DNA from: a virus
IMG/VR virus record: IMGVR_UViG_3300035696_000001
Length of the DNA stretch: 64,000 bases
Strand: one strand, 5' to 3'
The translations under genes and the position numbers were made by a program. Numbering within the stretch: the stretch's first letter is position 1; the number at the start of each line of letters is the position of its first letter. This document shows, in pieces, positions 2,408 to 25,268 of this stretch. The notes beneath the pieces were generated by a model. The model was not told the DNA's origin and searched no databases. It worked only from the letters and a program-made list of their open reading frames with translations.

Positions 2408-3160
2408 TTACAGCAGCAGTCCTGCTTCTTTCGCCCGCGTGCAGTCGAGGGAGATGAAGTCCACCTCGCCGTTGCGCTTCGGTCTGATTTCTGCTGGGAC
2501 GCCGCGCTTTTTGCTATATTCCTCGGCAAGCTCCCTGATGCCGGTCTCGATGCCCGAGCCGATGTTGTACGTCCCGTTTGGTGCGTCCAAGGCGCGGACG
2601 ATTGCCTTGCACACCGTGTCCACATGCACGAAGTCGCGGGTCTGATCGCCGCCGTAGATTGTTATGGGGCTGTCGTTCTCGAAGTGGTTATGGACGGCTG
2701 CTTCGCCGCGCATGCCGCAGTCGCCGCCGTAAACGTTCGCCAGCCGCAGGATCACGTAATTCGCATGGAGGTATTGGACGATCAATTCCGCCTGGAGTTT
2801 GCTGCGCGTGTAAGGCGACCGGCAGTTGGCGAAGTCTGCGTCCTGCTCCCCTGCCATTCGCCGGTTGCCGTACAAGCCCCCGGTTGAGATGAACACGAGC
2901 CTGCCGATCTTGTTGCCTTGGAGGAAGTCCCACAGACCGGCTGCGTTGTTCTGGTAGTACTCCTCCGGCTTTTCGAACGACCCCATGACGCTGACGAGCG
3001 CGGCAAGGTGAATGACGGAAGAGAAGCTTCTGCCTTTGATGTCGCGGTAGTCCTCCCCGCGCTTTAGGTCGCAGCCTTCCCAGCCGGGCAACAGCCTCTT
3101 CAGGTGGGTGCCGATGTACCCGGCGTCGCCGATGATGATGAGGCTTCCCGGCATATACAA
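2408..3160 (-). CDS. NAD-dependent epimerase/dehydratase (short SDR-type nucleotide-sugar enzyme)
   Basis: Rossmann motif GDAGYIGTHL and catalytic YTRSK. Paralog of 10849..11658. Confidence 0.65.
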   Translation of the reverse strand: MYMPGSLIIIGDAGYIGTHLKRLLPGWEGCDLKRGEDYRDIKGRSFSSVIHLAALVSVMGSFEKPEEYYQNNAAGLWDFLQGNKIGRLVFISTGGLYGNRRMAGEQDADFANCRSPYTRSKLQAELIVQYLHANYVILRLANVYGGDCGMRGEAAVHNHFENDSPITIYGGDQTRDFVHVDTVCKAIVRALDAPNGTYNIGSGIETGIRELAEEYSKKRGVPAEIRPKRNGEVDFISLDCTRAKEAGLLL

Positions 3161-3217: not shown

Positions 3218-3844
3218 TTACTGACACAGAACTTGTAATTCCTGAAGAGTCTTTGCCTTTCCGGTATTGGGGTGAAAGGCATCGCCCGTGCAATCACAAA
3301 CCGCGACTGCCGAGCGATAATCAGGCTCGCGCCATCCGGGTACCCGAAGAGTATAACGCCTGTCCCAGTAGGGCATGATGCCATGCGTGTGGAGCACGCC
3401 GCCGACCCAGCGGTCTTCTGCCCATTCATTGGGCGGAATGGGGGCTTCGGCAAGAATTCTCATGCAGCGCTCATCGACCCAGTAACAAAACCCTGAACAC
3501 CATGGCTTGGGCGGGGTTGCGTTGATGAAACCTGCGTACGGCTGCGGCGGGATGGCGGACATGATGCGGTTGGCTGCGATGAAGGTGTCGTCGTCAAGCT
3601 TCATAACTTTCTGGTAACCGTTCGCCAGCGCCCACTGAAACATCAGCTTGACCTTGAGGGGAAGCGAGTGGTAGTCGTCAGGGGCATCAAGAAAGACTTC
3701 GTCGGGCAGCGGCTCCCGATCCTGCTTGGCAAGGAAGAACTTCACGTCCGCGCCTTGGATGCGGGGCACCCACGACGCCCGCTGGGCGTCAGCGCGTTCC
3801 TTGAGCCTTTCGCAGGTCACGACGGCAATTAGGATTTTCGGCAT
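3218..3844 (-). CDS. Fringe-like (GT31-type) glycosyltransferase
   Basis: LIAVVTCERL..ASW N-terminal pattern and DDDTF DxD motif. Paralogous to 16950..18930 trio. Confidence 0.55.
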   Translation of the reverse strand: MPKILIAVVTCERLKERADAQRASWVPRIQGADVKFFLAKQDREPLPDEVFLDAPDDYHSLPLKVKLMFQWALANGYQKVMKLDDDTFIAANRIMSAIPPQPYAGFINATPPKPWCSGFCYWVDERCMRILAEAPIPPNEWAEDRWVGGVLHTHGIMPYWDRRYTLRVPGWREPDYRSAVAVCDCTGDAFHPNTGKAKTLQELQVLCQ

Positions 3845-4803
3845 ACCTGCTCAGCAATCCATCTGTAGGTCGGCACCAAGCCGTCTGCCAAGAGCGTTGC
3901 CGGTTCCCACCCGAGGATTTCACGCAGCCTGCTGTTGTCGCTGTTGCGACCGCGAACACCTTGGGGCTTGCTGAGGTCGTGTACCTTGGTCAGGGTTTTC
4001 CCCGCGATGCCGCTCACGATGTCTACCAGTCCGTCCACGGTCACGAGTTCTTCCGTGCCGAGGTTCAAAGGTTTAGTATATCCAGACGCCATCAGGCGGA
4101 TCAGACCCTCGACGCAGTCGTCGATCCACATGTAGCTGCGGGTCGCCTTCCCGTCGCCCCAGACCTCGATTTCTCCGCCGTCTTGAGCAAGCGCGACCTT
4201 GCGACAGATGGCCGCTGGCGATTTTTCTTTGCCGCCGTCGTAGGTTCCAAGCGGACCGTAAACGTTGTGGAAGCGCACTATGCGGATGTCCAAGCCGTAG
4301 TCCCTCTGGTAGTACTCGCACATCTGCTCGGCGAAGAGTTTCTCCCAGCCGTAACCTGGTTCCGGCAATGCTGGGTAAGCGTCCTCCTCCTTCAACGGCA
4401 CCACGTTGGTGTCGCGCTGTTTGTCTTGGTTGTACACGCATGCCGAGGACGTGTAGAGGTACCTCTTTACGCCCCAGTCTTTGGCGGCTTCCAGCATGTT
4501 GACATTGATGAGGATGTTGTTGCGGGCGATGTCGGCGAGGTATCGTGTGATGTAGCCGATGCCGCCCATGTCCGCCGCAAGGTTGTAGACCTCGTCAAAG
4601 TCCCGGACGCCGTAAGGCACGCAGTTGAAAACGGCGCTTGCGGCGTGGCGCAGGTCGTGGATCACGAACTCGTCTGCGGCGCTCCCTTCGTACTCGGGGT
4701 ACTTGATGTCGATGGCACGCACGAAATGACCGTCGCGCTTCAGCCGCTTGACGAGATGATGCCCGATGAACCCGCCTGCCCCAGTTACAAGGATTTTGCT
4801 CAT
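3829..4803 (-). CDS. Nucleotide-heptose epimerase, HldD/RfaD-like extended SDR
   Basis: VTGAGGFIGHHL. YGWEKLFAEQ matches HldD YGYSKFLFDE and VRFHNVYGP matches HldD FRYFNVYGP. Context is the heptose pathway genes. Confidence 0.6.
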   Translation of the reverse strand: MSKILVTGAGGFIGHHLVKRLKRDGHFVRAIDIKYPEYEGSAADEFVIHDLRHAASAVFNCVPYGVRDFDEVYNLAADMGGIGYITRYLADIARNNILINVNMLEAAKDWGVKRYLYTSSACVYNQDKQRDTNVVPLKEEDAYPALPEPGYGWEKLFAEQMCEYYQRDYGLDIRIVRFHNVYGPLGTYDGGKEKSPAAICRKVALAQDGGEIEVWGDGKATRSYMWIDDCVEGLIRLMASGYTKPLNLGTEELVTVDGLVDIVSGIAGKTLTKVHDLSKPQGVRGRNSDNSRLREILGWEPATLLADGLVPTYRWIAEQVCRKS

Positions 4804-4808
4804 TTCAT

Positions 4809-5489
4809 TTACCTCCTGCCTTTGAATACCCCAGAGTAGCAGCGGCCGATGGCGATGCCCTCATCGGAGCCTTCTACGCACCGCACTCCCCCATAAAACT
4901 CTTTGATTTCTTCTACTTTACCGACCCCCCCAAGCCACTTGTTTAAGAGTGCTTCTGTCTGAATGTGTGAGTGTCCGGGAGAAATCTCGGTGTCGATCCA
5001 GTCGAAGAAACGAACGAGCTTTCCCGATTCGAGTGCGTTGGCGACTATTTTCTCGGGGTTTTCCGTGTGTTCCAAGACATTGTAGACCCAAACTTCATCC
5101 ACATCGAATCCCGAGACATCCTCGCCCTTGAGACGGCGATATTCAATACCAGCGATTGCGTAGCGTTCGACGATCCAGTCGGGAAAGGGCAATGGGTCGG
5201 CTAGGGTACCGCGAACATTCCTGCACTTCAACAGCAGGGAAGTCCCGCCGCCGCCAATATCTAGCACAGACCTGCCGCCAAGGTTGAAGATCGGGTACGG
5301 CGTCCCGTTTTTGAATACGCCTTTTTTGCTTCCCCAAGTCGGCTTGTAATCTGCTTTGTCCGCGTCCCACTCAGCAAAAGAGAAGAGTCCCATGCGTTTT
5401 GCGTACACAAGCTGTTTCATCTCCTCGCCCTCGGTCTCGCCGTGCCCCCACCCGCCGAGTTCCTCAACCTGATCTTCTTCCCAACTCAT
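4809..5489 (-). CDS. Class I SAM-dependent methyltransferase
   Basis: Motif I VLDIGGGGTSLL; acidic post-II motif. Confidence 0.5.
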   Translation of the reverse strand: MSWEEDQVEELGGWGHGETEGEEMKQLVYAKRMGLFSFAEWDADKADYKPTWGSKKGVFKNGTPYPIFNLGGRSVLDIGGGGTSLLLKCRNVRGTLADPLPFPDWIVERYAIAGIEYRRLKGEDVSGFDVDEVWVYNVLEHTENPEKIVANALESGKLVRFFDWIDTEISPGHSHIQTEALLNKWLGGVGKVEEIKEFYGGVRCVEGSDEGIAIGRCYSGVFKGRR

Positions 5490-5492: not shown

Positions 5493-6161
5493 CTATTTCT
5501 CCCTGGTCAAGGGGACTCGTCTTAGTAAACCGCCCTCTGGCTGTATTTCATCATTGCTCCAGTCGTCGTAGACGGCGCTTACCAAACGACCGCTTAAGTG
5601 TCTTGAGGCGTCCGAGGCGAGGAACTCTACCAGCTTCACCGCCGGCCCCGGAACACCGTCGGATTCCGGGTTCATCTTGCTCCTCACAGACCCCGGAGCG
5701 ACGGCGTTAATCTGTATGTTGAAGTCTTTGAATTCGTCAGCCACGCACTCTACAAACCGGACTAGACCGGCTTTGGAAGCTGCATAGGCGGAATACTGAG
5801 GCCTGCCGTATGCTGCCCCGCCGCCCGAAAAATGGATGATTTTTCCGTAATTCTTGCCGACCATGCCGGGGAGAACGGCTTTGGTGAGATGAAAAGCGCC
5901 CACCAGATTTACGTTGATCGCTTGCACCCAGTGATCGGCGGGGTTAGATGTGACCGTCCCCACGGGGCCGAGCACTCCCGTGCAGTTTATGAGAATGTCG
6001 GGCTGGAAACGCGAAGCCGCCTGTTCGACATCCCCCAAGCTGGTGACGTCCACCCGATCTTGGTAAACTGTTGCTCCGCCATCCAGCATCCTCTGGGCTA
6101 CAGCGCTGCCGATCACCCCGGATGCGCCCGCCACCCAAACTTTCTTGCCAGTGAATAGCAT
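5493..6161 (-). CDS. Short-chain dehydrogenase/reductase (SDR)
   Basis: VAGASGVIGSAVA N-terminus and YAASKAG catalytic YxxxK. Confidence 0.7.
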   Translation of the reverse strand: MLFTGKKVWVAGASGVIGSAVAQRMLDGGATVYQDRVDVTSLGDVEQAASRFQPDILINCTGVLGPVGTVTSNPADHWVQAINVNLVGAFHLTKAVLPGMVGKNYGKIIHFSGGGAAYGRPQYSAYAASKAGLVRFVECVADEFKDFNIQINAVAPGSVRSKMNPESDGVPGPAVKLVEFLASDASRHLSGRLVSAVYDDWSNDEIQPEGGLLRRVPLTREK

Positions 6162-6162: not shown

Positions 6163-7143
6163 CTACACCTCTACCCACACTTTTGCCGCTGCGCTGGCGT
6201 ACGCCGCCTCTATCAGTCGCTGCGCTTGCAGCCCGTCATGGCTGTTGCTTTGCAAGACGTTTCCCATGATCTCGTTTTCGAAGGCGGCCCAGTCTATTTC
6301 CCAGTGAGCCAGACTGTTTTCAAATGTTTGCGTGACCTCTGTGGGTCGGCTGTGATCCGGCAGCCGGTGCCCCGCAGTTAGTTTTTGGGGGCCGTAGAAC
6401 CCGTCGCGCCCCTCCAGTCTCAGGTAACCGTCGGTCCCAAAGATTTCCAACTCAAAGATGCTCATCCATTGGGTCCAGCTAACGTGAATCTGCGCCATCC
6501 CCTGCTGGGTTTCTAAGAGAAGAAACGCGTTGTCTTCGGTGTTAGAGAATTTGTGGAAGCAGCAATCCGTCCTCGCTAGCACTTTTCGGGGTTCGCCGAA
6601 AAGGTATCGAACTAAGTCCAGCACATGAATGGCTTGTTCAATCAAGACGCCCCCGCCGCTGAACTCTTTTTGGGTACACCAATCCTTCTCGTAGCCGGGG
6701 TGCCCGCCGTGCCCGTAGCGGCACCTGACGAACATGGGGCGTCCTATGTCACCCCTGTCAAGGCGGGCTTTGGCTGCTCGAACATGCGACATGTGCCGGT
6801 AGTTGAATCCGACGTGTAGCATGCGACTATTCTCTTTGGCGCAGGCGCACATGTCTAGGGCCTCTGAAAGATTCAGACCAAGCGGCTTCTCGCACAGGAC
6901 ATGCTTGCCCTTTTTAAGGGCTTCCATGGCTAGCTCAGCGTGGTACTTCGTGGGCGTGGCGATCACGACGGCGTCGATGTCTTTTCGTGAGAGAATTGAT
7001 TCCTTGGTGTCCGCCAAGTCGGGAGATACCTTGCCGTGGGTGGGGTCATGCGCAGCGACAAGCACAGACCGCTCCGAGTTTTTGATCGCCTCGGCGCGGA
7101 ACTGTCCCGCTCGACCCATCCCGAATATAGCTACGTTGATCAT
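6163..7143 (-). CDS. Gfo/Idh/MocA-family NAD(P) oxidoreductase
   Basis: Start at the internal Met MINVAIFGMGRAGQ, giving an ATGA overlap with the upstream gene. EKPL motif. Typical sugar oxidoreductase. Confidence 0.7.
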   Translation of the reverse strand: MINVAIFGMGRAGQFRAEAIKNSERSVLVAAHDPTHGKVSPDLADTKESILSRKDIDAVVIATPTKYHAELAMEALKKGKHVLCEKPLGLNLSEALDMCACAKENSRMLHVGFNYRHMSHVRAAKARLDRGDIGRPMFVRCRYGHGGHPGYEKDWCTQKEFSGGGVLIEQAIHVLDLVRYLFGEPRKVLARTDCCFHKFSNTEDNAFLLLETQQGMAQIHVSWTQWMSIFELEIFGTDGYLRLEGRDGFYGPQKLTAGHRLPDHSRPTEVTQTFENSLAHWEIDWAAFENEIMGNVLQSNSHDGLQAQRLIEAAYASAAAKVWVEV

Positions 7144-8012
7144 TGGCTGGTTTCCCGGATTTTGTCTACGAGTTCCACAGCGTCCAAAAGAGGGGTCTTG
7201 CAGCCGTACCGACGCCCCAATTCCTGGAGGACGTGCAGGTCTCTTATCAAGTGCCCGCCCGAAAGCCCCCAACCGGGGTTCACGTACGACTTTCCCCCCA
7301 CTCTGCTATCCGCTTTGGTGGCCCGAGCTACGTCCATCTCGTCGGCACCCACCTTTTTACATAGGTTTGCTATCTCGTTGGCGAAGCTGATCTGCGTCGC
7401 CAGCATGGTGTTGTGGGCGTGCTTGGCCATCTCAGCGGATCGCAGGCCCATTTGCAGAACGGGACGACCCAACGGCCGGTACAGGCTGACGACGCGCTCC
7501 AAGACTGCGGGGTCGTCCGCCCCTATGATAATCCGGTCTGCGTACAGAAAATTGGACACCGATTGGCCGGGCCGCAAAAGCTCTGGAACGTAAGCCACCA
7601 TTCCGCTTGTCAAACTCTCTGTCGTGCCCACGGGCACCTGAGAAGTTACGCACAGGATGCTGCCTGCGGATCGCAGTTCTTCTATCTTGGAGGCTGTGAC
7701 TAATGTGGATTCCAGCAGCAGCCCCTTCTCGTTAAACGGTAGGTCAATCGAAAGAAACACAAAGTCAGCCTCAGAGACGGCCTCGTTGTCTGTGGTGAAT
7801 CGAAGGCGGCGGAGAAGCAAGTTGTTGCGAAGCAGGGTCTCCAACCCCGGCTCGGGGATAGCGCCGGAATAATGCCCCGAATTCAACGCAGCAACGCAAC
7901 CGGCATCTCCGTCAATGGCCACGACCTGATAGCCTATCTCAGAGAAGCAAGCCGCTTGAACCACGCCCTGATGCTGCAAGCCTACGATGCAAATTTTGGG
8001 GGCGTCGCTCAT
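7140..8012 (-). CDS. UDP-glucose/GDP-mannose dehydrogenase-family protein, C-terminally truncated
   Basis: N-terminal NAD domain and central domain (RSAEMAKHAHNTMLATQISFANEIANLCKKVGAD, GWGLSGGHL). Only 290 aa, so the C-terminal UDP-binding domain is absent. Confidence 0.55.
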   Translation of the reverse strand: MSDAPKICIVGLQHQGVVQAACFSEIGYQVVAIDGDAGCVAALNSGHYSGAIPEPGLETLLRNNLLLRRLRFTTDNEAVSEADFVFLSIDLPFNEKGLLLESTLVTASKIEELRSAGSILCVTSQVPVGTTESLTSGMVAYVPELLRPGQSVSNFLYADRIIIGADDPAVLERVVSLYRPLGRPVLQMGLRSAEMAKHAHNTMLATQISFANEIANLCKKVGADEMDVARATKADSRVGGKSYVNPGWGLSGGHLIRDLHVLQELGRRYGCKTPLLDAVELVDKIRETSQ

Positions 8013-8725
8013 AGTTTGTACCCAGACTCCTGTGCGTCGCGGTAAAACATCCGCACGGTCTCAAGGGAGTATTCGTCGAGGTCTTTGCCCACAAGCGGGA
8101 GCTTTTTCAGGATGTCGGTCGTCGCCGTGATGATGTGGCATCCGACCGCGTCGGCTTGGAATACGTTCAGGAGTTCTCGCGGGGACGCCCAAAGGAGTTC
8201 GGCGTTGGGCGCGACGGAGTTGATGCGTCGCACCGCCTCCGCCATCTCTGGCACGGGGTCGCGCCCGGTGTCTGCGATGCGCCCCGCGAAAACGGAGATG
8301 TAGGCTGGAGCGCCGCCCGTCAGTGCGTCGCAGCACTGATCGACCTGCTCCAAGGTCATGAGAGCGGTCACGTTGACCTTGATGCCGTCGTGGGACAACT
8401 TGTCTACCAAACCGTAGGATTCGACGCCACGAGTATCGGTAACGGGGATTTTGACATAGACATTGCCTCCCCATGAAGCGATCTTGAGCGCCTGTGCTTG
8501 CATCGAGGCGTAATCGTCCGCGAGTACTTCGAAAGAGACGGGACGATCCGGCACGGATTCCAGTAGGTCTTTCGCGAAGGCTTCGTAATCCTTGATGCCA
8601 GCCTTGCGCATCAAGGTAGGATTTGTCGTGAAACCTTTAATGACGGGGTTCTTGTAAAGCTCCAGAATCGTAGCCTTGTCGGCACCGTCGCCGAAGATTT
8701 TCACTTTCAAATCGGTTACGTTCAC
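8009..8725 (-). CDS. tal: Transaldolase / fructose-6-phosphate aldolase family
   Basis: GFTTNPTL signature and ISVFAGRI. Start assigned to the GTG at 8725, in a GTGA overlap with the upstream stop. The ORF-track 5' extension is Arg-rich junk. Confidence 0.75.
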   Translation of the reverse strand: MNVTDLKVKIFGDGADKATILELYKNPVIKGFTTNPTLMRKAGIKDYEAFAKDLLESVPDRPVSFEVLADDYASMQAQALKIASWGGNVYVKIPVTDTRGVESYGLVDKLSHDGIKVNVTALMTLEQVDQCCDALTGGAPAYISVFAGRIADTGRDPVPEMAEAVRRINSVAPNAELLWASPRELLNVFQADAVGCHIITATTDILKKLPLVGKDLDEYSLETVRMFYRDAQESGYKL

Positions 8726-9825
8726 GGCTTGTCTCCCCGCAGAATCCAGCCCACAGCCTCTCTGAGGGATAGTACCGTGGCATCCGGCGTCGTTTCTGGG
8801 GTTTCGTTGCTGGATTCGATGAACACCGTTTTGCAGCCCGCTGCTTTGCCAGCAATGACATCTCGCCAATAGTCGCCGACCATGTAGCTGGAACCAAGGT
8901 CGATATTGAACGCCTCGGCAGCGAGCGCAAGCATGCCCGGCTTCGGCTTCCGGCAGCCGCAACCATCCTCATCGGAATGGTAGCAAACGTAAATGCGGTC
9001 TATGGGGAGTTCGGCAAGTAGCCTCTCGTTCACAGCTTCGACGAGGCTCCTTTTCACGAGACCTCGACCCACGTCGGGTTGATTCGTGACAACGATAAGC
9101 CTGTAGCCTGCTTCCTTGAGGTTGGCGAGGAGGGCCGCTGCTCCGGGAACGATTCTCAACTCCTCGACGGACTTGGGCGGAAACCGGTCCTCGGTCAGGG
9201 TGCCGTCTCGGTCTAAGAATACCGCCCGCTGGGGAAGCATGGACTCCCACTTGGTTTGTGCTTGCTTCAGAAGGGGATGGGAAACGAGGAGATGCCAAAC
9301 CACGGCCTGGAACGCCTCCGAGTGGGGCGTCACGCGGTCCGGGTTCGCCGTGGGGATTACGACGCATGCGTCCGCGACCTTGGCTGTGTACCCGCCGTCC
9401 CGCCCCACGATGCCCACCACGCGGCTCCCGACGCTTCTGGCGTAGTCTATGGCGGACACCAAGTTGGGGCTGACGTTCCTTTCCGCATCGCCTCCGCCCA
9501 CGGATAGAATCAAAAGCGTGTCCGTGGCTTTCAGGCGGCTGCCCCTGAGCCAAGCCGCGAAGACAGTCGCCCACCCTTCGTCGTTGGTTCTGGCTGTCAG
9601 TTCCGCGACGTTGTCGGTGGGGGCGTAGGCTTCGATCCCGGCTATCTTGCGGAAGTCGTTGACAGCGTGGGAAGCGTTGGCGGCGCTGCCCCCCACGCCC
9701 AAAACAAAGAGCCGACCGTTTTTGCGTGTGTCGGCGAGAATCTCAGCGCTGCGCTCTATCGCATCGAGGTCCAGCGCGGCGGCAATCTGCTGCACTTCCT
9801 CAAGGAAGAGTCTCGAAAAACTCAT
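8722..9825 (-). CDS. gmhA-gmhB: Bifunctional sedoheptulose-7-P isomerase (GmhA, SIS) / D,D-heptose-1,7-bisphosphate phosphatase (GmhB, HAD) fusion
   Basis: N-terminal SIS domain LFVLGVGGSAANASH. C-terminal HAD domain with FLDRDGTLTED and VVTNQ. Confidence 0.75.
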   Translation of the reverse strand: MSFSRLFLEEVQQIAAALDLDAIERSAEILADTRKNGRLFVLGVGGSAANASHAVNDFRKIAGIEAYAPTDNVAELTARTNDEGWATVFAAWLRGSRLKATDTLLILSVGGGDAERNVSPNLVSAIDYARSVGSRVVGIVGRDGGYTAKVADACVVIPTANPDRVTPHSEAFQAVVWHLLVSHPLLKQAQTKWESMLPQRAVFLDRDGTLTEDRFPPKSVEELRIVPGAAALLANLKEAGYRLIVVTNQPDVGRGLVKRSLVEAVNERLLAELPIDRIYVCYHSDEDGCGCRKPKPGMLALAAEAFNIDLGSSYMVGDYWRDVIAGKAAGCKTVFIESSNETPETTPDATVLSLREAVGWILRGDKP

Positions 9826-10802
9826 GAATGCACCATGATTGACGTCCCTACGAAGTCGAAACGGATGCGGACTTCGCGCAAACCGGCTCCAGACAATGCT
9901 TTCCGAAGTCGAGCCTTGTCCTCGGCGTAGAGCATCAAGAATCCCCCGCCTCCTGCCCCGACAAGCTTGCCGCCGAGAGCGCCGTTGTCCAACGCTAGCT
10001 GGTAGAGTTTGTCAATATGGGGGTTCGACATGCCCTCGGAACGCGCCCTCTTATGCAACCAGTGCTCGTGCATGAGGGCGGCGAAAGCACGCAGGTCGCC
10101 TCCCACGAGCGCATCCCGGCTCTGGAGACCAAGCTGTTTGGTGTGGTGCATGTTGTCGAGCATGGCGGCGTCGCTTTGCTTCGATTTGATGTCTTGGTCT
10201 GCAAGGATGCTCGACGCCGAGCGTGCATAGCCCGTGAAGAAAAGAAGCAGATTGTCTTCCAGGTTCGCCAGCGCTTCGCTGTTAATCGGCAACGGGCAGA
10301 AGCTCACGCTTCCGTTCCGGTTGAAGTCAAAGCAGGTCACCCCGCCTATCGCCGCGATGTACTGGTCTTGCTTGCCGCAGTGCTGTCCCAAAATGTCGTG
10401 TTCGATGTGGAACGCCTCCTCCGCGAGGTCTTGGCGCGTGATGGTCTGGTTGTGAAAAAAGTGCAGGGCTTGGAGCAAGGCTGTGGTAAAGCTGCCCGAC
10501 GAGCCTAGCCCGGTGCTATGGGGGATGTCGGCTACGTTAGCTATGTCAATAGAGTTCTGGATGCCCGTGAGCCTAAGAGCCTCGCGGATAACCGGGTGTT
10601 CGATCTGATCTACTGTGTCAACTTCCTCTTGCTTTGAGTATTTTAGGATGATCTTGGACTTGAAGGACTCGTTGACCGTGACATACACGTACCTGTTGAT
10701 CGCTGCGGAGAGGACAAAACCGCCGTGGTCTTGGTAGTAGGACGGCAGGTCAGTACCGCCCCCGCCCAAAGTGACCCTCAATGGTGATCGGACAATAATC
10801 AC
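9822..10802 (-). CDS. hddA: GHMP-family sugar kinase, heptose-7-phosphate kinase (HddA)-like
   Basis: MIIVRSPLRVTLGGGGTDLP N-terminus and PHSTGLGSSGSFTTALLQAL GHMP motif. Confidence 0.7.
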   Translation of the reverse strand: MIIVRSPLRVTLGGGGTDLPSYYQDHGGFVLSAAINRYVYVTVNESFKSKIILKYSKQEEVDTVDQIEHPVIREALRLTGIQNSIDIANVADIPHSTGLGSSGSFTTALLQALHFFHNQTITRQDLAEEAFHIEHDILGQHCGKQDQYIAAIGGVTCFDFNRNGSVSFCPLPINSEALANLEDNLLLFFTGYARSASSILADQDIKSKQSDAAMLDNMHHTKQLGLQSRDALVGGDLRAFAALMHEHWLHKRARSEGMSNPHIDKLYQLALDNGALGGKLVGAGGGGFLMLYAEDKARLRKALSGAGLREVRIRFDFVGTSIMVHS

Positions 10803-10848: not shown

Positions 10849-11658
10849 TTAGCCTTCGTAATCGTTGTTTGGCCGCCCGGACGGAATCAGACCTGCGTCT
10901 ATTGCTTTGGATGGGTCAAGCAGGGTGCTTTTTACGTCTTCTTTTCTGGCGGGTTTGTAGACGACCTCGACTCCGCGAAGCTTTCCGAAATGTTCCGCCA
11001 GGTCGCCGAGGCGGGTGGAATGGCCGTGGGCCAAATTGAACGTCCCGGTGTACTCCTCCCCGCTCGCCCGGATAAGCGCTTTACAGATCAGGTCAACGTG
11101 GATGAAGTCTCGAACTTGGTCGCCGCCGAACACCACGATTGGGTTGTCGTTCTTGAAATGGGTGAGCGCCAGCGTCTCGGCTCTTTCTGGAACGTGGCCG
11201 CCGAAGACGTTTCCGAATCTGGCGATGAAGTTGTTGGGGCACAGACGGTTGATGATGCCCTCGGCTATAAATTTGGATTGGGCGTAGGGGTTCAAGCACT
11301 TGTTCCAATGGGCATCCTCTTCCTTGGCGGGCGTCTCTCGCTCCCCGTACACCGCGCCGGAGGAGGAGAAAATGAACTTCTTCACCGTGTTGTTCTGGAA
11401 AAAGGGAATTAGGTTGAGGGCGTTCACTTGCATCATTTTGTCGGCCAGTTCGACGGAGCCGCCGAGGATGGACAGCGCCCCCAAGTGGAACACCACATCG
11501 AATGTGTGGCCCTGGAGGGTGCTGTAGTCTTGTCCTTCTTTGGCGTCGCACACGGAGATTAAGTCGTATGGAAAAGTCCTTGCGACCGCCTTCAGGAGGT
11601 GCGACCCTATGTAACCCGACGTACCTGTCATCAAAATGTGCATTTGAATCTCCTTCAT
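10849..11658 (-). CDS. NAD-dependent epimerase/dehydratase
   Basis: MTGTSGYIGSHL and YAQSKFIAE. Paralog of 2408..3160. Confidence 0.65.
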   Translation of the reverse strand: MKEIQMHILMTGTSGYIGSHLLKAVARTFPYDLISVCDAKEGQDYSTLQGHTFDVVFHLGALSILGGSVELADKMMQVNALNLIPFFQNNTVKKFIFSSSGAVYGERETPAKEEDAHWNKCLNPYAQSKFIAEGIINRLCPNNFIARFGNVFGGHVPERAETLALTHFKNDNPIVVFGGDQVRDFIHVDLICKALIRASGEEYTGTFNLAHGHSTRLGDLAEHFGKLRGVEVVYKPARKEDVKSTLLDPSKAIDAGLIPSGRPNNDYEG

Positions 11659-12431
11659 TTAACCCCGTATTTTTTCTTCAACTGCTCGTACAGGCTGTCT
11701 TCGGGGTAGTTTTTATTGGGGTTTAGCCCTAGATTGCCGTGTTGCCAATACGAGCAGCGAAGATGGATTGCGCGGGACTTTTCCGGGAAAGACCACGACT
11801 GCCCGCCGCTGACGAACCTCACATACTGCTTCCCGTCGAGGCAGCCTATGGCGTCGAAAACAGCCGAATCGCGATAGTAGTCTTGCAGACCCGCCTTTGG
11901 AACCCATTTTCGGAACAGCCCCGGTCCGATGCCCGCGTTTATGTTGCCTATGATTCTAGTGAGGTCGCACCCTTTTTGCGGGTTCCGGCTTTCGATCTCG
12001 TTGACTATGTTCTGGAGAAAAGGCGCTTCGGCTGGGGCTTTGAAAAGACACCCAGTCAAGTAAGCCGGGTCAAGGAGCGACGAGACACCACCGTCCGGGG
12101 ACTCGCAAAGAAGGACATAGGGTTCCGGGAAGTCGAAGGGCTTCAGGCAGACGATGTCCACATCGACATACCAGCCCCCCTTTTTGCAGATTAGATGAGA
12201 CCGGAAATAGTCGGAAAAGTGGTTTGGGCCGGTGAACCACGTATGAGCATCCTCGGGGACTACCTCGCTTGTGGCATGCACCACCGTGCCCTCGGGGATG
12301 CCCCGGCAGTCCGGGTGCGTGGTGTACAAATGGAACTCGTGCCCGTTGCTCAGAAAGGATCGGATCGAGAGCTTTTCGAGGTTCGTCAGTTCGACCCCAC
12401 ACCATACGCCGTTGATGATCTTGTTGTCCAT
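11655..12431 (-). CDS. GT32-like glycosyltransferase (DXD sugar-binding region)
   Basis: WCGVELTNLEKLSIRSFL..GHEFHLY and DVDIVCLKP DxD. ATG at 12431 is preferred over the TTG at 12464. Confidence 0.5.
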   Translation of the reverse strand: MDNKIINGVWCGVELTNLEKLSIRSFLSNGHEFHLYTTHPDCRGIPEGTVVHATSEVVPEDAHTWFTGPNHFSDYFRSHLICKKGGWYVDVDIVCLKPFDFPEPYVLLCESPDGGVSSLLDPAYLTGCLFKAPAEAPFLQNIVNEIESRNPQKGCDLTRIIGNINAGIGPGLFRKWVPKAGLQDYYRDSAVFDAIGCLDGKQYVRFVSGGQSWSFPEKSRAIHLRCSYWQHGNLGLNPNKNYPEDSLYEQLKKKYGVK

Positions 12432-12439
12432 TGAAACGA

Positions 12440-13084
12440 CTATTTTGCGCCTTTCTGCACCCAAGCGGAGTGGTCTGACAGGTTGTTGTAGATTGGTTGT
12501 TTACCTTGTTTGTGGAAAAACTCTAAGGCCGCTTTCTGGCATCCGGGCCAGAGGTAGAAATCGTCAAAATAGATAAAGCCGCCCGGTACGATAGCGTCAT
12601 AAAATTTTTCCAAGCAAACCCTTTCGGATTCGTACCAATCCGAATCAAGGCTTAGCATTGCGATTTGCGGGACTGCAACAGTCGGAAGGGTATCCTTAAA
12701 CCAACCCGCATGGATGTTGACCTTAGCCATATCTGCTCCGACTTTTTGGAGCACCTCCTTGACCGCGTCAACGCTGCCCTTACAACTACCGACGCAGCTT
12801 TCGGCAGTTACGCCGTTGGGCTGCGGAAGGTCTTCTTTGGTGGGTGTAGGTAGGCCCTCAAAAGAGTCAAATAACCAAACCTTTCTGTTAAACTTGGAAT
12901 TAGCTGCGAAGTGGGCTAAGACAGCGCCCAAGCCGCCGTTCCATACACCGCATTCGACCATATCTCCGGGGATGCCTTCTTCCTCTATTCGGCGTGCTAA
13001 AGGTATGTACTGGCGTACTTGGTCGCCGCAAGCCATAGTATAGGGCTGAACTATCTTTTCAAGTTCTTCGTTTGTTAACATCAC
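12440..13084 (-). CDS. TylF/MycF-family sugar O-methyltransferase
   Basis: ECGVWNGG, DSFEGLP and LSLDSDWYE motifs typical of macrocin-O-MTase-like enzymes. Confidence 0.65.
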   Translation of the reverse strand: MMLTNEELEKIVQPYTMACGDQVRQYIPLARRIEEEGIPGDMVECGVWNGGLGAVLAHFAANSKFNRKVWLFDSFEGLPTPTKEDLPQPNGVTAESCVGSCKGSVDAVKEVLQKVGADMAKVNIHAGWFKDTLPTVAVPQIAMLSLDSDWYESERVCLEKFYDAIVPGGFIYFDDFYLWPGCQKAALEFFHKQGKQPIYNNLSDHSAWVQKGAK

Positions 13085-14121
13085 GCGTTTCCCTTTTCAT
13101 CCAGTTTTGTTCTGTCCGCCAACTGCTGTTCCAGCCTGGCGACTTCCTTGCGCAGGATGCCGATTTCTTCTTCTGATTTGTGGAGTCTTTCCTGATGGAG
13201 GGCGTTCTCAGCTTTTAGTTGCTGCTCCACCTCGGCGACTCTCTCACGCAGGCTGCCGTTATCAGCTTTCAATTTTTCGCACTCAGTAACCAGAAATTGC
13301 ATATATTTTTCCTCGCAGTATCGTGCCTGTATCGTGCACTGCCACCTTGACCATTGGTGAAAGATGAAGTACGGTACGATGTCCGTTGCTTCGTTGTCCT
13401 CTATTTCATTATTCATCATCAATCCGTTCGTCAGTTTTCCGTGCGCCTCTACGAACGGGGCAAACACGAACTTATCTTTATATCGGAAGATTTTTGTTCT
13501 GTCCTTGTACTTGTCCTGGCGGATCAGGACGTTCAACCCCTGTTGGTCGCCGAGGCAGTCATCGTGTGTTGGGTGAAACTTTTCCCTTCGCTTGTCCCTC
13601 AAGCACATCGTGTAAATGTCCCGGCACAGGTCGGCGGCAACGTCCGGCAAGCCTGCGATGACCCCAGCGTTGAGGATTTCCTGTCCCATGAGGGACTCGT
13701 GAACTTCGTGGCCAAAGGCGTCGCAAAGCACCTTGTCATTCTCCTCGTACCGTCCGCTGTAGAGGTGCTCTTCGGAGCCAATAGCCAGGCTGTAGCCGCC
13801 GAGGCTGCCCCGTATCCACTCCATTGGGTTGCGCTGGAACACGACATCCTTGGTGTCGATCAGCAAAACGTAGCGAAGAGCAGTAGCTTCCTTGGCTAAG
13901 ATTTCGGAGATGATGCGGAACCGCGCCATGGCGGCTTCCTCCCCTTTGGAATCGACATCGCAGGTCTCGATGTCGTACGCCTCCAGTTTTTTGTCCTTGC
14001 AGTCAGTGATGAGAATACAGCGCCCGTGGTACCCCGACCACCGCAAAGAAACGACAAAAAACTCCAGTTCCTTCCAACCGTAGCCCGCAGCCATGCCGAT
14101 AATGAGATCATTCTCATTCAT
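13081..14121 (-). CDS. Putative glycosyltransferase-like protein with C-terminal coiled coil
   Basis: N-terminal nucleotide-diphospho-sugar-transferase-like region (LLIDTKDVVF). Last ~80 aa are a heptad-rich coiled coil (LKADNGSLRERVAEVEQQLKAEN..). Function uncertain. Confidence 0.35.
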   Translation of the reverse strand: MNENDLIIGMAAGYGWKELEFFVVSLRWSGYHGRCILITDCKDKKLEAYDIETCDVDSKGEEAAMARFRIISEILAKEATALRYVLLIDTKDVVFQRNPMEWIRGSLGGYSLAIGSEEHLYSGRYEENDKVLCDAFGHEVHESLMGQEILNAGVIAGLPDVAADLCRDIYTMCLRDKRREKFHPTHDDCLGDQQGLNVLIRQDKYKDRTKIFRYKDKFVFAPFVEAHGKLTNGLMMNNEIEDNEATDIVPYFIFHQWSRWQCTIQARYCEEKYMQFLVTECEKLKADNGSLRERVAEVEQQLKAENALHQERLHKSEEEIGILRKEVARLEQQLADRTKLDEKGNA

Positions 14122-14831
14122 TGATGCGCCTTGGGGTTGTCCTTCTCGATATGTATGATTTTGGGGACAAAATCAGGCGTATGCCAGATATGGGGCGCTC
14201 TCCAATAGATACGGTTGGGCGGAAACGCATAGGCCGGTGAAAGAGCTATCGCCGGGGGGTTGTGTTCCAAGTAGCAGTTCCAGTGAGACTCATCTTGCCA
14301 TTTCGCCACGATGCCCCTGCCGTCGTCAATGTCGATGTTGCGGGCGAGAATCTTGCATACCGCCAAATACTCGGGGGCCGAGCCGCCTTGGAAGCAGCCT
14401 TGGTAGTAAAAACGGTGGCTTTGGAGAAACGCTGTCGATTCTCGTCTAGTTTCGACATTCGCCCCCTCGCCGCTGGGGATGTAGTTCCGCTCCACACCGG
14501 GGTGAAGCACCGCTGTAATGCCTTTAGCACAGAATTCTTCTTCGAGAATGGGGGCCACGACCCTCATGTCGATGTCGATGTGCATCAGGTAGTCATAACC
14601 GGCAAGCCAGTCCGCTTGGCTGGATATGGCATGGTAGCGCATCATGCCAGCACGCGGCCACCCCAAATGCGGGTACTCCACGACGCGGGCATCATACGGA
14701 GCTTTGCTGTCCGTGAACAGGACTGGGTCGCAGGGCGGGAAGAACTTCCGCAGCGACTCAATGAGGGGCGGAACGAAGCTCAGGAATTCTTGCTTTCCCG
14801 TCGCGATCAGGATTACGGCAATCTTGCTCAT
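14118..14831 (-). CDS. GT6-family glycosyltransferase (ABO blood-group alpha-1,3-Gal/GalNAc-transferase-like)
   Basis: Start at the internal Met MSKIAVIL, in an ATGA overlap. Aligns with the catalytic region of human GTA/GTB: YLMHIDIDM (DxD), RRESTAFLQSHRFYYQGCFQGG, KWQDESHWNCYLE and ALSPAYAFP. Confidence 0.8.
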   Translation of the reverse strand: MSKIAVILIATGKQEFLSFVPPLIESLRKFFPPCDPVLFTDSKAPYDARVVEYPHLGWPRAGMMRYHAISSQADWLAGYDYLMHIDIDMRVVAPILEEEFCAKGITAVLHPGVERNYIPSGEGANVETRRESTAFLQSHRFYYQGCFQGGSAPEYLAVCKILARNIDIDDGRGIVAKWQDESHWNCYLEHNPPAIALSPAYAFPPNRIYWRAPHIWHTPDFVPKIIHIEKDNPKAHQ

Positions 14832-15508
14832 AAATCGTAGCCGCCCCGGTGCAAAAGTAAGACACCGTGAAAAAACCTGTGCTGCCATCCGGGCACATCG
14901 AAAGGATAGCCCTGATCCACGAGATAGTGACTTACTTCGCACGGACAACCCAACTCGTGGCACGGGTACCCCCGGAACGAAGTCACAGAGCAGCGGTCAC
15001 AGTCAGTTGCCAGCCGCTTCACGTCGTCAACGACGACGAAAGAGTCTGGGGCAAATTTTGCGATGGCGGCAAGTTCAAGCGGAACCTGGAACTCGCATGT
15101 CGTATGGGCATTGTCTCCGAAACAATGAGCGTCGAGCCAGAATAGGACACGCTTGCCGCTCGGAGGCGATGCCCATACCAGTGTCGGCAGGAAGTTTGGC
15201 AGCCAAGCGCCGCTGGAGCCGTGAACGCAGTGAACATTGGGCGCATTTTTGAACCTCTCTGTTGCCTTCTGGTACAAATCGTCACTCAGTTCGATAGTCC
15301 AGATTTCATCAAAATGGTTTTGGCAGGCAGCGGGCATGTTTCCCTTGTACGTTCCCGTTTCGACGAGGACGTTCAGGTCAAAGTGCTCGCCCAGCGCGAT
15401 GAGCAAGTCTCTGCGCCAGTTGTCGGTGGGATGCACCATGTCCGTGCCGCCGTAGCTCTTCCAAAACAACAAATCATTCGTAGTTGCAGGATCGCGAAAG
15501 GTGAACAT
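14828..15508 (-). CDS. SAM-dependent O-methyltransferase (CmcI/Methyltransf_24-like)
   Basis: Start at the internal Met MFTFRD. VLVETGTYKGN and FWLDAHC motifs. Confidence 0.45.
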   Translation of the reverse strand: MFTFRDPATTNDLLFWKSYGGTDMVHPTDNWRRDLLIALGEHFDLNVLVETGTYKGNMPAACQNHFDEIWTIELSDDLYQKATERFKNAPNVHCVHGSSGAWLPNFLPTLVWASPPSGKRVLFWLDAHCFGDNAHTTCEFQVPLELAAIAKFAPDSFVVVDDVKRLATDCDRCSVTSFRGYPCHELGCPCEVSHYLVDQGYPFDVPGWQHRFFHGVLLLHRGGYDL

Positions 15509-16122
15509 TAAAGAACCCTCACGCTGACCGCCGCTTCCCCGCTGTCCCCGATTGTGTGCAGGGCAAGGTATTCGTAGGGGCGTCCTTGGATGAATTCCTG
15601 GAACGCCTTGAACTCGTGCTCCCGCCATCCGGGGTAATCCATGTACTCGTCGAACATGATGACCGTCCCCGGCACAATCTTGGGGCCGAAGTTGTCGAAC
15701 ACCGTTTTGGTGGACGAATAAATGTCGCAGTCGATGTGTATAAAAGAGATCGGACCGGGATGCGACCTTGCGAAATCGGGAAGCGTGTCCGCAAACAGGC
15801 CCTTTACGATCTCTACATTTTCTCGAACTTTGGGCACGTCGCATTTGTTGCGCCCCTTTGGGGCGTTGCCCGGCCAATCCTCTGGCAGCCCTTCAAAGGA
15901 GTCGAAGCCGTAAATCTTGGCGGGCGCTACCAAGTCCGCGAGGCAGTTCAAACTACCGCCTGTCGCCACGCCCAACTCCATGATCAGACCCTCTATGGAG
16001 CGGGCGTCAGTGGAATACCTGTAAAAGTAGTGGCGACCGCTGGGGCGGTAAGAAGAATCGTCTGTGGGAAAGAGAAAGCGTGCGACTGTTTTCCCAGAGA
16101 AATAAAGATTCGAGTCGCGCAT
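15508..16122 (-). CDS. TylF-family sugar O-methyltransferase
   Basis: ELGVATGGS, FDSFEGLPE and IHIDCDIYSST. Confidence 0.6.
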   Translation of the reverse strand: MRDSNLYFSGKTVARFLFPTDDSSYRPSGRHYFYRYSTDARSIEGLIMELGVATGGSLNCLADLVAPAKIYGFDSFEGLPEDWPGNAPKGRNKCDVPKVRENVEIVKGLFADTLPDFARSHPGPISFIHIDCDIYSSTKTVFDNFGPKIVPGTVIMFDEYMDYPGWREHEFKAFQEFIQGRPYEYLALHTIGDSGEAAVSVRVL

Positions 16123-16123
16123 T

Positions 16124-16960
16124 TTATAGTTTTATAGCCGGGACTGTACCCGGCTCCCCCATTTTCACCCACCGCTCGGGAACAACGTCGTCGTAGCGGA
16201 CGGGCGCGTTGCCGAACCATTTCTTGGGTGCGATCACGATTCGGTCGGCCTGTGTGTCACCGAGCCAAGCGCCCCACCAGCCAAACGAGCTATTAGGAAA
16301 GATGGCGTGGCGGCACAGGCTCATCAACCACAAGTCCTCGTGCTCGTGCCCCGGACTGTCGCCGAAGCCCATCTTGTTGTGGTCTACGATTGTGCAGTCG
16401 GCAAACCTCTCCCGGCACCCGTCTGGGTCGTCCGAAAAGACGAAGAATTTCGCATCGGCAATACGTTCGCGTACGTATTGCATCGCCTCTGCATAATAGT
16501 CCCACGTCATGTTGCCGTGGAACGCCGCCTGCCCCGCGCCGAGGTAGTCGGTTCGCCGCACATGGATGAACGCGCTCTGCGGCGCTGCCGCGATTGCGTC
16601 AGCAACCCGCTTGGTCTGCTCGCCGACCGGGTTTCTGAGCGTAAAATCCCTTCGGATCAGGTCGGGTTCTGGCTCAAAGTATTTTTCCGTCTGCCAGCAG
16701 CCCCGGAAATTTGTCCCGTTCGGTACTTTGTAAACTTGCGGATCGAAAATCAGGTGCGATTCGTCGAAAAAAGGCCCTCCGCCTCCCCCGAACCGTACGT
16801 CGCGGACATTGAAGACGTCAAGCCCGTAGGCGCGGTGGCATCCGGGCCCCAAACCTACCTTGTAGAACAAAACATCCTCCCTTCGCACCCGCGAAACGCA
16901 GCGACCGAAAGCGTACTGGAACATCTGGTTGCCCAGGCCTCCATTGAGCCTAACCAACAT
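16124..16960 (-). CDS. GT11 alpha-1,2-fucosyltransferase (FutC/WbsJ/FUT2-like)
   Basis: Canonical motif I GGLGNQMFQYAF. HVRRTDY, FVFSDD and SSFGWWGAWL motifs match H. pylori FutC and E. coli WbnK. Confidence 0.85.
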   Translation of the reverse strand: MLVRLNGGLGNQMFQYAFGRCVSRVRREDVLFYKVGLGPGCHRAYGLDVFNVRDVRFGGGGGPFFDESHLIFDPQVYKVPNGTNFRGCWQTEKYFEPEPDLIRRDFTLRNPVGEQTKRVADAIAAAPQSAFIHVRRTDYLGAGQAAFHGNMTWDYYAEAMQYVRERIADAKFFVFSDDPDGCRERFADCTIVDHNKMGFGDSPGHEHEDLWLMSLCRHAIFPNSSFGWWGAWLGDTQADRIVIAPKKWFGNAPVRYDDVVPERWVKMGEPGTVPAIKL

Positions 16961-19676: not shown

Positions 19677-19809
19677 GTGCCCTCACTTTCTTTTCGCGGT
19701 AACGGCGTGCTTTCTCTGCTCCAGTCAACGGTCTCTCACCTATGCGACGATAAGTACGGTGTCCTCCTATCCTCGCGGAGCCACATGTACGTGTAGTAGA
19801 CCTTGTCCA

Positions 19810-24174: not shown

Positions 24175-24239
24175 TTGATCTGTTTTATTCCGATAATCAA
24201 CCAGAAAAGCTAATTCAGCCCTCGTATTAGAGGGTTGAA

Positions 24240-24785: not shown

Positions 24786-25268
24786 GCTGTGAGGAGACCG
24801 AAGTGGTGCATAAGCGCGTGTTCAAGGCGGTAAACCGGAAGATCGACGGCAAGACCACCGTTTCCTACAAGGAAGGCGCTGACGGCACGGGGGTCACCTT
24901 GCCGTCCACCTGCGGGTTCTGCAAGGATCGCCACGGCAACGTGACGTTCGCGTGCCGCTCGCGCAGGGAGCGGAACCGCCACGCGAACGAATGCTCGGAT
25001 CGCGGGTAAAATGGCACAGAATTGCCAACGCTGCGGAAGCTACAAGCATACGACGGACGACCACGACCGCCGCAAGTTCGGAAGGCGGCGGGTTCTGCGG
25101 ACGAAGCCGGTTAAAAAAATGAAGAAGTGAAGATTCAGCGGGCGGTGCCGGACGACCTGCACCCGTCAAAGTGCTCTCTAATCGTCCATGTTCCCCCGCT
25201 TGTCAGCATCAACGAGGCGTTCCCCTCGGCGCTTTTCTGGGGTACAATTGCGGATTGAGGATACCCTG

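Follow-up and report, generated by a model that had tools for sequence, protein, structure and literature searches.

A stretch of phage-like DNA carries a common bacterial cassette, probably for a higher-carbon sugar, but not its nucleotidyltransferase

Among characterised pathways, only the guanosine diphosphate (GDP)-octose route of the lincosamide antibiotics lincomycin and celesticetin has a transaldolase of its own alongside a SIS isomerase, a GHMP kinase, a HAD phosphatase, and a nucleotidyltransferase. The lmb and ccb gene sets encode a transaldolase, an isomerase, a kinase, a phosphatase, a nucleotidyltransferase, a dehydrogenase, an epimerase, and an NAD(P) oxidoreductase (PMC12945683). 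The transaldolase LmbR forms octulose-8-phosphate from ribose-5-phosphate and either fructose-6-phosphate or sedoheptulose-7-phosphate (PMC5854111; PMC7014725). The isomerase LmbN, the kinase LmbP, the phosphatase LmbK, and the guanylyltransferase LmbO lead on to GDP-octose, and the dehydrogenase LmbL, the oxidoreductase LmbZ, the epimerase LmbM, and the aminotransferase LmbS follow (PMC12945683, PMC4351081). Other described systems to be compared are the GDP-D-glycero-alpha-D-manno-heptose pathway (GmhA, HddA/WcbL, GmhB, and HddC) and the adenosine diphosphate (ADP)-heptose pathway with the bifunctional HldE. In phages, the nucleoside diphosphate (NDP)-arabinose route of RB69, DLP3, and HY126, which serves DNA arabinosylation, comprises a SIS isomerase, an anomeric kinase, a HAD phosphatase, and a nucleotidyltransferase (PMC13326640). 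Here, we analysed a stretch of 64,000 nucleotides from the IMG/VR virus record IMGVR_UViG_3300035696_000001 (the window, meaning this whole stretch), in which a GHMP kinase, a SIS-HAD fusion protein, and a transaldolase are encoded side by side. According to our analysis, the gene set is very probably a phage-borne copy of a widespread but uncharacterised bacterial cassette for a nucleotide-activated higher-carbon sugar, in a variant from which the transferase is missing.

The three genes all lie on the minus strand, at the coordinates of the first-pass annotation, which had described them as a coupled group of three belonging to a heptose pathway. Their coupling was confirmed, and neighbouring genes overlap by 4 nucleotides at each of the junctions kinase/fusion, fusion/transaldolase, transaldolase/dehydrogenase, and dehydrogenase/Gfo/Idh/MocA oxidoreductase. 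The gene of a short-chain dehydrogenase/reductase (SDR, 5493..6161) begins one base beyond the Gfo/Idh/MocA gene and is followed by the genes of a 226-amino-acid (aa) protein and an extended SDR. Because the translational coupling runs on into the truncated NDP-sugar dehydrogenase, the Gfo/Idh/MocA oxidoreductase, and the SDR, the unit is larger than three genes, and the boundary drawn around the three had to be given up. They form the centre of an operon of roughly eight genes. Our terminator scan found no intrinsic-terminator-like site on the minus strand from 10802 to 2408, and promoter and terminator scans of the window gave nothing informative beyond this terminator-free operon. The core and the genes coupled to it are as follows.

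9822..10802, minus strand: GHMP sugar-phosphate anomeric kinase (HddA/WcbL-like, LmbP-like), 326 aa, GTG start
8722..9825, minus strand: SIS-HAD-IIIA fusion, 367 aa
9238..9825, minus strand: SIS isomerase domain of the fusion (residues 1-196), GmhA-like fold, distinct and highly conserved subfamily
8722..9231, minus strand: HAD-IIIA phosphatase domain of the fusion (residues 199-367), GmhB/LmbK-like
8009..8725, minus strand: transaldolase, 238 aa, GTG start overlapping the stop of the fusion
7140..8012, minus strand: NDP-sugar dehydrogenase family protein without the C-terminal nucleotide-binding domain, 290 aa
6163..7143, minus strand: Gfo/Idh/MocA oxidoreductase, 326 aa, with PF01408, PF22725, and matches in the PDB
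5493..6161, minus strand: classical SDR, putative ketoreductase, 222 aa, PF00106 at E 3e-31

In the kinase, Pfam recognised the GHMP N- and C-terminal domains (PF00288 and PF08544). Its best NCBIfam model by far is that of HddA (NF049969, E 1e-52, 179.6 bits against a cut-off of 600), followed by fucokinase (E 7e-31), mevalonate kinase (2e-27), and galactokinase (2e-19), and the closest solved relatives are the heptose-7-phosphate kinase WcbL (PDB 4usk/4usm) and HddA-type structures (E 1e-46 to 3e-46). Since these matches are far stronger, a galacto- or mevalonate-type kinase was rejected, and the earlier naming as an HddA-like GHMP kinase is borne out. The N-terminus IIVRSPLRVTLGGGGTD aligns with WcbL from residue 2; therefore, the longer form with the GTG start is correct.

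The N-terminal half of the fusion matched SIS_2 of Pfam above the cut-off (39.8 bits). Sequence matches of this half in the PDB are exclusively GmhA or DiaA, with GmhA aligned over fusion residues 19-178, and a SIS domain of the KpsF/GutQ type was ruled out on this ground. The C-terminal half passed TIGR01656 (HAD-IIIA, histidinol-phosphatase-type) with 132.4 bits against a cut-off of 84.15. It contains all four HAD motifs, including FLDRDGT (DxDGT), VVTNQ, and GDYWRD, together with the zinc-binding insert CYH..CGCRKPKPG (CxH..CxC-RKPxPG). Its closest structures are those of GmhB, over fusion residues 199-345 (PDB 4pnh, E 3e-25). When an AlphaFold model of the fusion (pLDDT, the predicted local distance difference test score, 81.7) was searched with Foldseek, the template modelling (TM) scores were 0.80 to E. 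coli GmhB and 0.6-0.71 to GmhA structures. Accordingly, the earlier assignment of a GmhA-like and a GmhB-like domain was confirmed by SIS_2, TIGR01656, and structure, whereas the models that are specific for the two heptose enzymes stayed below their cut-offs. For the SIS domain, the GmhA equivalog TIGR00441 gave 50.5 bits against 209.45, and the remaining GmhA models gave 44-49 bits against 265-320. For the HAD domain, NF006506 gave 130 against 178, TIGR00213 gave 94.3 against 149.6, and the alpha-specific NF050049 gave 80.9 against 250.

The transaldolase also proved to be real. It passed TIGR02134, the Staphylococcus/Coxiella type, with 338.2 bits against a cut-off of 281.95, matched PF00923 of Pfam (E 5e-44), and keeps the Schiff-base lysine in a VKIP motif that lines up with the transaldolases of T. 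maritima and T. acidophilum. It also matches the phage transaldolase family phrog_440 (112 bits). The 317-aa open reading frame (ORF) listed for it is over-extended, and the gene called on identical contigs encodes 238 aa.

We next consider how common the fusion and its neighbours are. A search with the fusion protein matched at least 8000 clusters, and the best 120 are all full-length SIS and HAD proteins with 60-70% identity, mostly from Acidobacteria, annotated as 'HAD-IIIA family hydrolase' or 'D-sedoheptulose 7-phosphate isomerase'. Gene order was counted in the best 80 of at least 574 species-representative genomes with relatives, and these 80 span Acidobacteriota, Rhizobium, Polynucleobacter, Chlorobium, Verrucomicrobiota, Planctomycetota, and Myxococcales. 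SIS and HAD are truly fused in 25 of the 80, mainly in Acidobacteriaceae and Sulfotelmatobacter, and are separate but adjacent in the other 55, including Bryobacterales, Rhizobium, Polynucleobacter, Chlorobium, and Verrucomicrobia. With these numbers, the fusion can no longer be called unusual, as the first-pass annotation had done. A transaldolase gene directly follows SIS/HAD in 70 of the 80 genomes and in nearly all related IMG/VR phage loci, so that it is not a phage add-on but was inherited with the bacterial cassette, of which it is a near-universal part. Directly ahead of SIS/HAD, an NTP_transferase gene (PF00483) is found in 63 genomes, and a GHMP kinase is present in 57. Many of the genomes also carry an SDR epimerase, a full-length NDP-sugar dehydrogenase, a short SDR, and a Gfo/Idh/MocA oxidoreductase upstream. 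The conserved bacterial cassette thus comprises epimerase, NDP-sugar dehydrogenase, SDR, Gfo/Idh/MocA oxidoreductase, kinase, nucleotidyltransferase, SIS, HAD, and transaldolase.

The tailoring genes of the window have counterparts in this cassette. The Gfo/Idh/MocA oxidoreductase of the window shows 31-37% identity to the cassette gene in 29 of the 80 bacterial loci, and an SDR counterpart lies between the dehydrogenase and Gfo/Idh/MocA genes in Rhizobium and Lawsonia. A complete cassette is located on plasmid 3 of Lawsonia intracellularis (NC_008014, 14573..22924; our locus L170) under the generic annotations SIS, HAD-IIIA, transaldolase, nucleotide sugar dehydrogenase, SDR, Gfo/Idh/MocA, 'galactokinase', and nucleotidyltransferase. 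The cassette of Rhizobium tubonense carries an additional methyltransferase and a GtrA-like protein. Those of Acidobacteria carry an additional GT2 glycosyltransferase and a PMT/ArnT-like GT-C glycosyltransferase, which suggests delivery of the sugar to an envelope glycan via a polyprenyl-phosphate form.

Two further transaldolase loci were observed. In contig L080, a single 419-aa ORF (11073..12332) joins GIY-YIG and NUMOD3 homing-endonuclease domains to a transaldolase domain, which points either to insertion of a homing endonuclease at the 5' end of the transaldolase gene or to a fusion with it. A transaldolase of the TIGR02134 type on a Streptomyces plasmid sits in an unrelated context.

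Within the cassette, the SIS domain is a distinct and tight subfamily that reaches from Acidobacteria to Lawsonia to phages, as judged from its alignment. The SIS domain of the window shows 59-68% identity to the cassette SIS of Rhizobium, Lawsonia, Polynucleobacter, and T4-like phages, and 32% to E. coli GmhA. Compared with the residues of E. coli GmhA, His61 and His180 are kept, Glu65 is replaced by Asp, and Gln172 by Glu. The phosphate loop (S119-T-S-G-x-S124 in E. coli) reads S-V-G-G-G and is followed by a 6-aa insertion. Also, 5 aa are deleted behind the catalytic acid, by which the Arg69 region is lost, and 4 aa are inserted ahead of the Gln172 equivalent. These residue changes and the three indels around the substrate site are conserved throughout the cassette subfamily.

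The sole cassette member missing from the window is the nucleotidyltransferase; in bacteria, its gene has its place precisely between those of the kinase and of SIS/HAD. The first-pass annotation had noted this absence, and all of our searches agree with it. Pfam, applied to essentially all ORFs of the window, found no sugar-1-phosphate nucleotidyltransferase of the PF00483 or PF01467 type. Hidden Markov models built from 67 cassette NTP_transferases and from 62 small PF01467 enzymes reached best E values in the window of 0.67 and 0.34, respectively, which is noise, and a scan of the window for nucleotidyltransferase motifs gave no match, with 62 of 67 matched in the control. Since the cluster proteins without a family resemble GT-A or methyltransferase folds by motif, they provide no candidates for this transferase.

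This absence is specific to the lineage of the window. The order kinase-fusion-transaldolase without a transferase is shared by the two large contigs most similar to it, L001 (142 kb, 75-78% identity) and L088 (454 kb, 67-74%). About 60 T4-like IMG/VR contigs (L003-L079; for example, L007 8961..13856 and L030 2241..8889) carry a compact module in the order rfaE-domain-II-like transferase (PF01467, about 140 aa), SIS, HAD, transaldolase, GT1, and GHMP kinase, often with a TylF methyltransferase, and with genes of T4 RNase H and PhoH nearby. In some cassette variants, bacterial ones among them (L133 11152..12723, L137 12753..14420, and L080 14057..15682), an HldE-like bifunctional protein substitutes for the GHMP kinase and the NTP_transferase. 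These proteins have a reversed domain order, with the adenylyltransferase N-terminal and the PfkB kinase C-terminal, and score about 125-160 bits against a cut-off of 521. The activating enzymes can thus be exchanged from cassette to cassette, and the constant core consists of SIS, HAD, and transaldolase.

In terms of enzyme composition, the set resembles the lincomycin octose route more closely than ordinary heptose synthesis. Seven families of the lincosamide pathway (transaldolase, SIS, GHMP, HAD, the dehydrogenase that is truncated here, NAD(P) oxidoreductase, and SDR epimerase) are shared with the window operon. The published comparison of the Ccb proteins points to the same bacteria that carry the present cassette, Acidobacteria and Sorangium. 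The closest non-lincosamide homologues are from Solibacter usitatus for CcbK (49%), an uncultured Acidobacterium for CcbZ (40%), Sorangium for CcbP (37%), and Acidobacterium capsulatum for CcbO (38%) (PMC4351081 S1). The closest such homologue of CcbN is a Sorangium 'sugar phosphatase' (39%; PMC4351081 S1), and as this match is named a phosphatase while the query is an isomerase, a SIS-HAD fusion is implied. With a Bryobacterales HAD protein as the query, the Solibacter usitatus relative of CcbK was not identifiable among the matches listed, and the PDB holds no Lmb or Ccb structures. On the other hand, several differences have to be considered. The window has neither a nucleotidyltransferase (LmbO) nor an aminotransferase (LmbS), and a short SDR stands in the place of the latter; likewise, no aminotransferase was seen in the bacterial cassettes examined. 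Isomerase and phosphatase are separate in lmb but fused in the window, and the one cluster makes an antibiotic, whereas the other is a phage glycan cluster. Based on the enzyme-family composition and the published BLAST table, on which the link to octose rests, we favour an Lmb-like C8 sugar over a plain heptose as the product of the cassette, and consider that this proposal has an even chance of being correct.

Our data show enzyme families only, and we infer the substrates and the specific reactions at every step of the mechanism that we propose. The transaldolase would transfer a C3 unit from fructose-6-phosphate onto an aldose phosphate to form the skeleton of a ketose phosphate. The SIS domain would convert the ketose into the aldose omega-phosphate, the GHMP kinase would phosphorylate C1, and the HAD-IIIA domain would remove the terminal phosphate to leave the sugar 1-phosphate. 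As SIS would act before the kinase and HAD after it, the fusion would catalyse the steps that flank the kinase step. Nucleotide activation would have to be provided by the cassette nucleotidyltransferase of the host, which probably belongs to Acidobacteriota, or by a gene elsewhere in the large genome. The truncated NDP-sugar dehydrogenase, the Gfo/Idh/MocA oxidoreductase, and the SDR may tailor the NDP-sugar, and the products of about 15 neighbouring glycosyltransferase and O-methyltransferase genes may place it in a glycan on the virion or the host envelope. In the octose version, ribose-5-phosphate would be the acceptor, octulose-8-phosphate the skeleton, and octose-1-phosphate the product, and 6,8-dehydration and keto-reduction could follow to give an 8-deoxy-octose. 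LmbL and LmbZ jointly perform the 6,8-dehydration, which requires a C8 chain. The 8-deoxy-octose is proposed because the short SDR stands in place of the aminotransferase.

The most serious alternative, which we regard as a real possibility on the doubtful side, is the GDP-D-glycero-alpha-D-manno-heptose pathway, as the first-pass annotation had it. In this case, SIS would be GmhA, the kinase HddA, and HAD GmhB, with HddC provided by the host; the transaldolase would boost sedoheptulose-7-phosphate from fructose-6-phosphate and erythrose-4-phosphate, and the oxidoreductases and methyltransferases would lead to a modified (methyl-)heptose. The window set shares with this pathway the reaction logic, the folds, and the best solved relatives, the catalytic histidines and the zinc-binding CxH..CxC motif are kept, and phrog_440 provides a precedent for phage transaldolases that rewire the pentose-phosphate pathway. 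However, the heptose pathway has not been established by our results, since every equivalog cut-off, for GmhA, GmhB, and HddA, was missed by a wide margin. There is no transaldolase in the GDP-heptose pathway, HddC is absent from the window, and the SIS domain of the window is only about 30% identical to GmhA. Sedoheptulose-7-phosphate is a central metabolite, and although it is, the transaldolase is linked in 70 of the 80 genomes. The co-conserved NDP-sugar dehydrogenase and Gfo/Idh/MocA oxidoreductase have no role in known heptose pathways, whose modifying enzymes are of the SDR and cupin types, and fit the LmbL and LmbZ classes, although the literature searched gives LmbL and LmbZ generic family labels only. 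We know of no characterised heptose cluster with a transaldolase, and literature searches found no description of one, nor of a cassette-derived octose in lipopolysaccharide. We therefore doubt an ordinary heptose because the transaldolase is almost never absent, the SIS subfamily is distinct, with indels at the phosphate loop and the Arg69 region lost, and the composition matches, among characterised pathways, only the lincosamide octose route. The ADP-heptose pathway offers in HldE a precedent for fusing non-consecutive steps of higher-sugar synthesis, but the kinase of the window is of the GHMP and not the PfkB type, and there is neither an adenylyltransferase domain nor HldD.

Several observations weigh against an octose. 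Heptose enzymes are the closest characterised relatives of all three core enzymes, with HddA, GmhA, and GmhB scoring best for the kinase and the two fusion domains. The HldE-like and rfaE-domain-II-like activating enzymes of the cassette variants are otherwise known from heptose pathways. The transaldolase of the window (238 aa, TIGR02134 type) is probably not orthologous to CcbR, and the two probably belong to different subfamilies. The nearest relative of CcbR, which has 222 aa, comes from Cellulomonas, and CcbL is a nucleotide sugar dehydrogenase of 436 aa (PMC4351081 S1). The dehydrogenase is truncated in the window, and its gene is missing from the closest phage relative, L001, so that an LmbL-like step may not operate in the lineage of the window. 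Finally, as it has no nucleotidyltransferase gene, the window does not encode a complete pathway.

In its widest form, the octose proposal is more tentative, and we place it somewhat below an even chance. In this form, the transaldolase-SIS-HAD cassette would be a primary-metabolism NDP-aldo-octose pathway, probably for an 8-deoxy-octose, that is widespread in the envelope glycans of Acidobacteria, Rhizobia, Verrucomicrobia, Lawsonia, and others. The lincosamide sugar pathway would have evolved from it, and it would have been captured by phages at least twice, by T4-like phages that have their own rfaE-II-type transferase, and by a huge-phage lineage that has none and would depend on the host enzyme.

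A further alternative, which we consider improbable, is another non-central ketose phosphate, either a different heptulose isomer or a nonulose from hexose-6-phosphate, processed to the sugar 1-phosphate by the same isomerase, kinase, and phosphatase logic. The tight linkage of the transaldolase argues for a dedicated skeleton-forming step, which would suit such a ketose as well, and the SIS domain is a distinct subfamily, with the chain length not fixed by the present data. However, there is no precedent for it, and the lincosamide parallel points specifically to C8. Transaldolases best accept C3-C5 aldose phosphates, which also counts against it.

The genes could also be what is left of a host operon that was captured and is now decaying or without function, considering that the nucleotidyltransferase found between kinase and fusion in bacteria is missing and that the dehydrogenase has no C-terminal domain. 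We consider this very unlikely: all ORFs are intact with start/stop overlaps that couple them, the catalytic motifs are conserved, the transferase-less order is kept at 67-78% identity in L001 and L088, and identical copies occur in several independent samples. Least credible of all, the transaldolase might be a general auxiliary metabolic gene like cyanophage talC, directing carbon flux to nucleotide synthesis and lying beside sugar genes by chance, for which the match to phrog_440 could be cited, but its 4-nucleotide overlaps with both neighbours and its fixed place after SIS/HAD in the 70 bacterial genomes and nearly all related phage loci mean that synteny effectively refutes this.

Phage encoding of a precursor supply, which had also been regarded as unusual, has precedents in the NDP-arabinose route (PMC13326640), in heptose on phage DNA, and in talC. 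The NDP-arabinose route likewise draws an intermediate of the pentose-phosphate pathway into an NDP-sugar in a phage; it differs in its KpsF-like SIS, its APH-like kinase, the presence of a nucleotidyltransferase, its DNA target, and the lack of a transaldolase. Cyanophage talC is likewise a phage-borne PF00923 gene, whereas the gene of the window is of the TIGR02134 type and co-inherited inside a sugar-activation operon.

The remaining genes of the operon and of the upstream block are as follows.

4809..5489, minus strand: 226-aa protein, function unassigned by family, phrog_3603 (unknown function) at E 5e-35
3829..4803, minus strand: GDP-mannose 3,5-epimerase homologue (PDB 8sg0, 2c59)
3218..3844, minus strand: GalT-like glycosyltransferase by Pfam, at the downstream end of the cluster
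2408..3160, minus strand: extended SDR epimerase by Pfam, at the downstream end of the cluster
10849..20481, minus strand: upstream glycan-assembly block, from Pfam and gene calls on identical contigs

The truncated dehydrogenase contains PF03721 and PF00984 and lacks PF03720 in Pfam, scores 191.6 with TIGR03026, and aligns with PDB 3gg2 (E 2e-46) across residues 7-284 of that 450-aa protein; its counterpart in the bacterial cassette is full-length, with 433 aa. The 226-aa protein had no match in Pfam or NCBIfam, and its LDIGGGG, read as resembling an S-adenosylmethionine-binding motif, may indicate a methyltransferase. The protein encoded at 3829..4803 had been labelled an HldD-like heptose epimerase. 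This label was rejected, because TIGR02197 gave 61.3 against a cut-off of 274.6, whereas structures of GDP-mannose 3,5-epimerase, including the plant enzyme, matched over the full length at E 1e-96. Together with a gene of the GT11 fucosyltransferase family (16124..16960, minus strand), this homologue suggests L-galactose or L-gulose in the glycan.

The upstream block encodes an SDR epimerase, a DXD glycosyltransferase, two TylF-type O-methyltransferases, GT6, GT11, and GT2 proteins, and several Fringe/GalT-like GT-A proteins. Taken as a whole, the same-strand cluster extends over about 20 kb and contains GT2, GT6, GT11, DXD, and several GalT/Fringe-like glycosyltransferases, the two O-methyltransferases, and three extended SDRs. 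On the plus strand, two adjacent ORFs (33619..34254 and 34267..34995) jointly resemble a PMT_2/ArnT-like GT-C membrane glycosyltransferase. Because the acidobacterial cassettes adjoin a PMT-family GT-C, this pair may be a transferase for a lipid-linked form of the sugar.

Judged by its gene content, the window resembles a portion of a large phage genome, with genes for a polynucleotide kinase, an RNA ligase, a CCA-adding enzyme, a Thg1-like enzyme, a helicase, ThyX, a dCMP deaminase, homing endonucleases, and a peptide deformylase; no virion genes were identified among the window genes. Copies of the cluster are identical in several independent metagenome samples. The fusion protein (P0001) recurs identically on a contig of 894,233 bp, and a 67% relative is found on L088 (454 kb). 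The element could be a phage of very large size, or it may lie within a bacterial chromosome. Among cultured phage genomes, there was no near-identical DNA, and the only protein matches were weak ones to the HAD half. The window contains no tRNA genes and no Rfam families.

Some features outside the sugar cluster were also recorded. An RNA repair and maturation set on the plus strand (22750..36317 and 62071..62979) includes the polynucleotide kinase, the RNA ligase, the CCA-adding enzyme, a Thg1-like tRNA-His guanylyltransferase, and a phrog_850 RNA-binding protein whose DVSGSM motif could be read as vWA-like. The peptide deformylase is encoded at 28555..29088 and a NifU/IscU gene at 54244..54666. 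The region 24800..29800 has few credible ORFs, a strong positive AT skew, and no Pfam or Rfam match. At 57188..59388 (plus strand), the ThyX ORF overlaps a 454-aa ORF with an HNH region (134-303) and a dCMP deaminase domain (312-447), which may be another insertion of a mobile endonuclease.

In summary, we have placed the kinase, the SIS-HAD fusion, and the transaldolase of this phage in a bacterial cassette that has been hidden by generic names such as 'HAD-IIIA family hydrolase', 'galactokinase', and 'transaldolase'. If the product is an octose, this would be the first aldo-octose pathway outside the lincosamide antibiotics, and it would represent a new class of monosaccharide in bacterial and phage glycans across hundreds of species. 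The bearers of the cassette include the cultured Rhizobium tubonense and R. panacihumi and the veterinary pathogen Lawsonia intracellularis. A heptose as the product would still leave three novel features, namely an obligatory transaldolase, a distinct SIS subfamily, and tailoring by dehydrogenase and Gfo/Idh/MocA enzymes. For the biology of the phage, a large phage with a glycan cluster of about 20 kb that would make its own sugar skeleton but encodes no activation step presents a testable case of dependence on the host.

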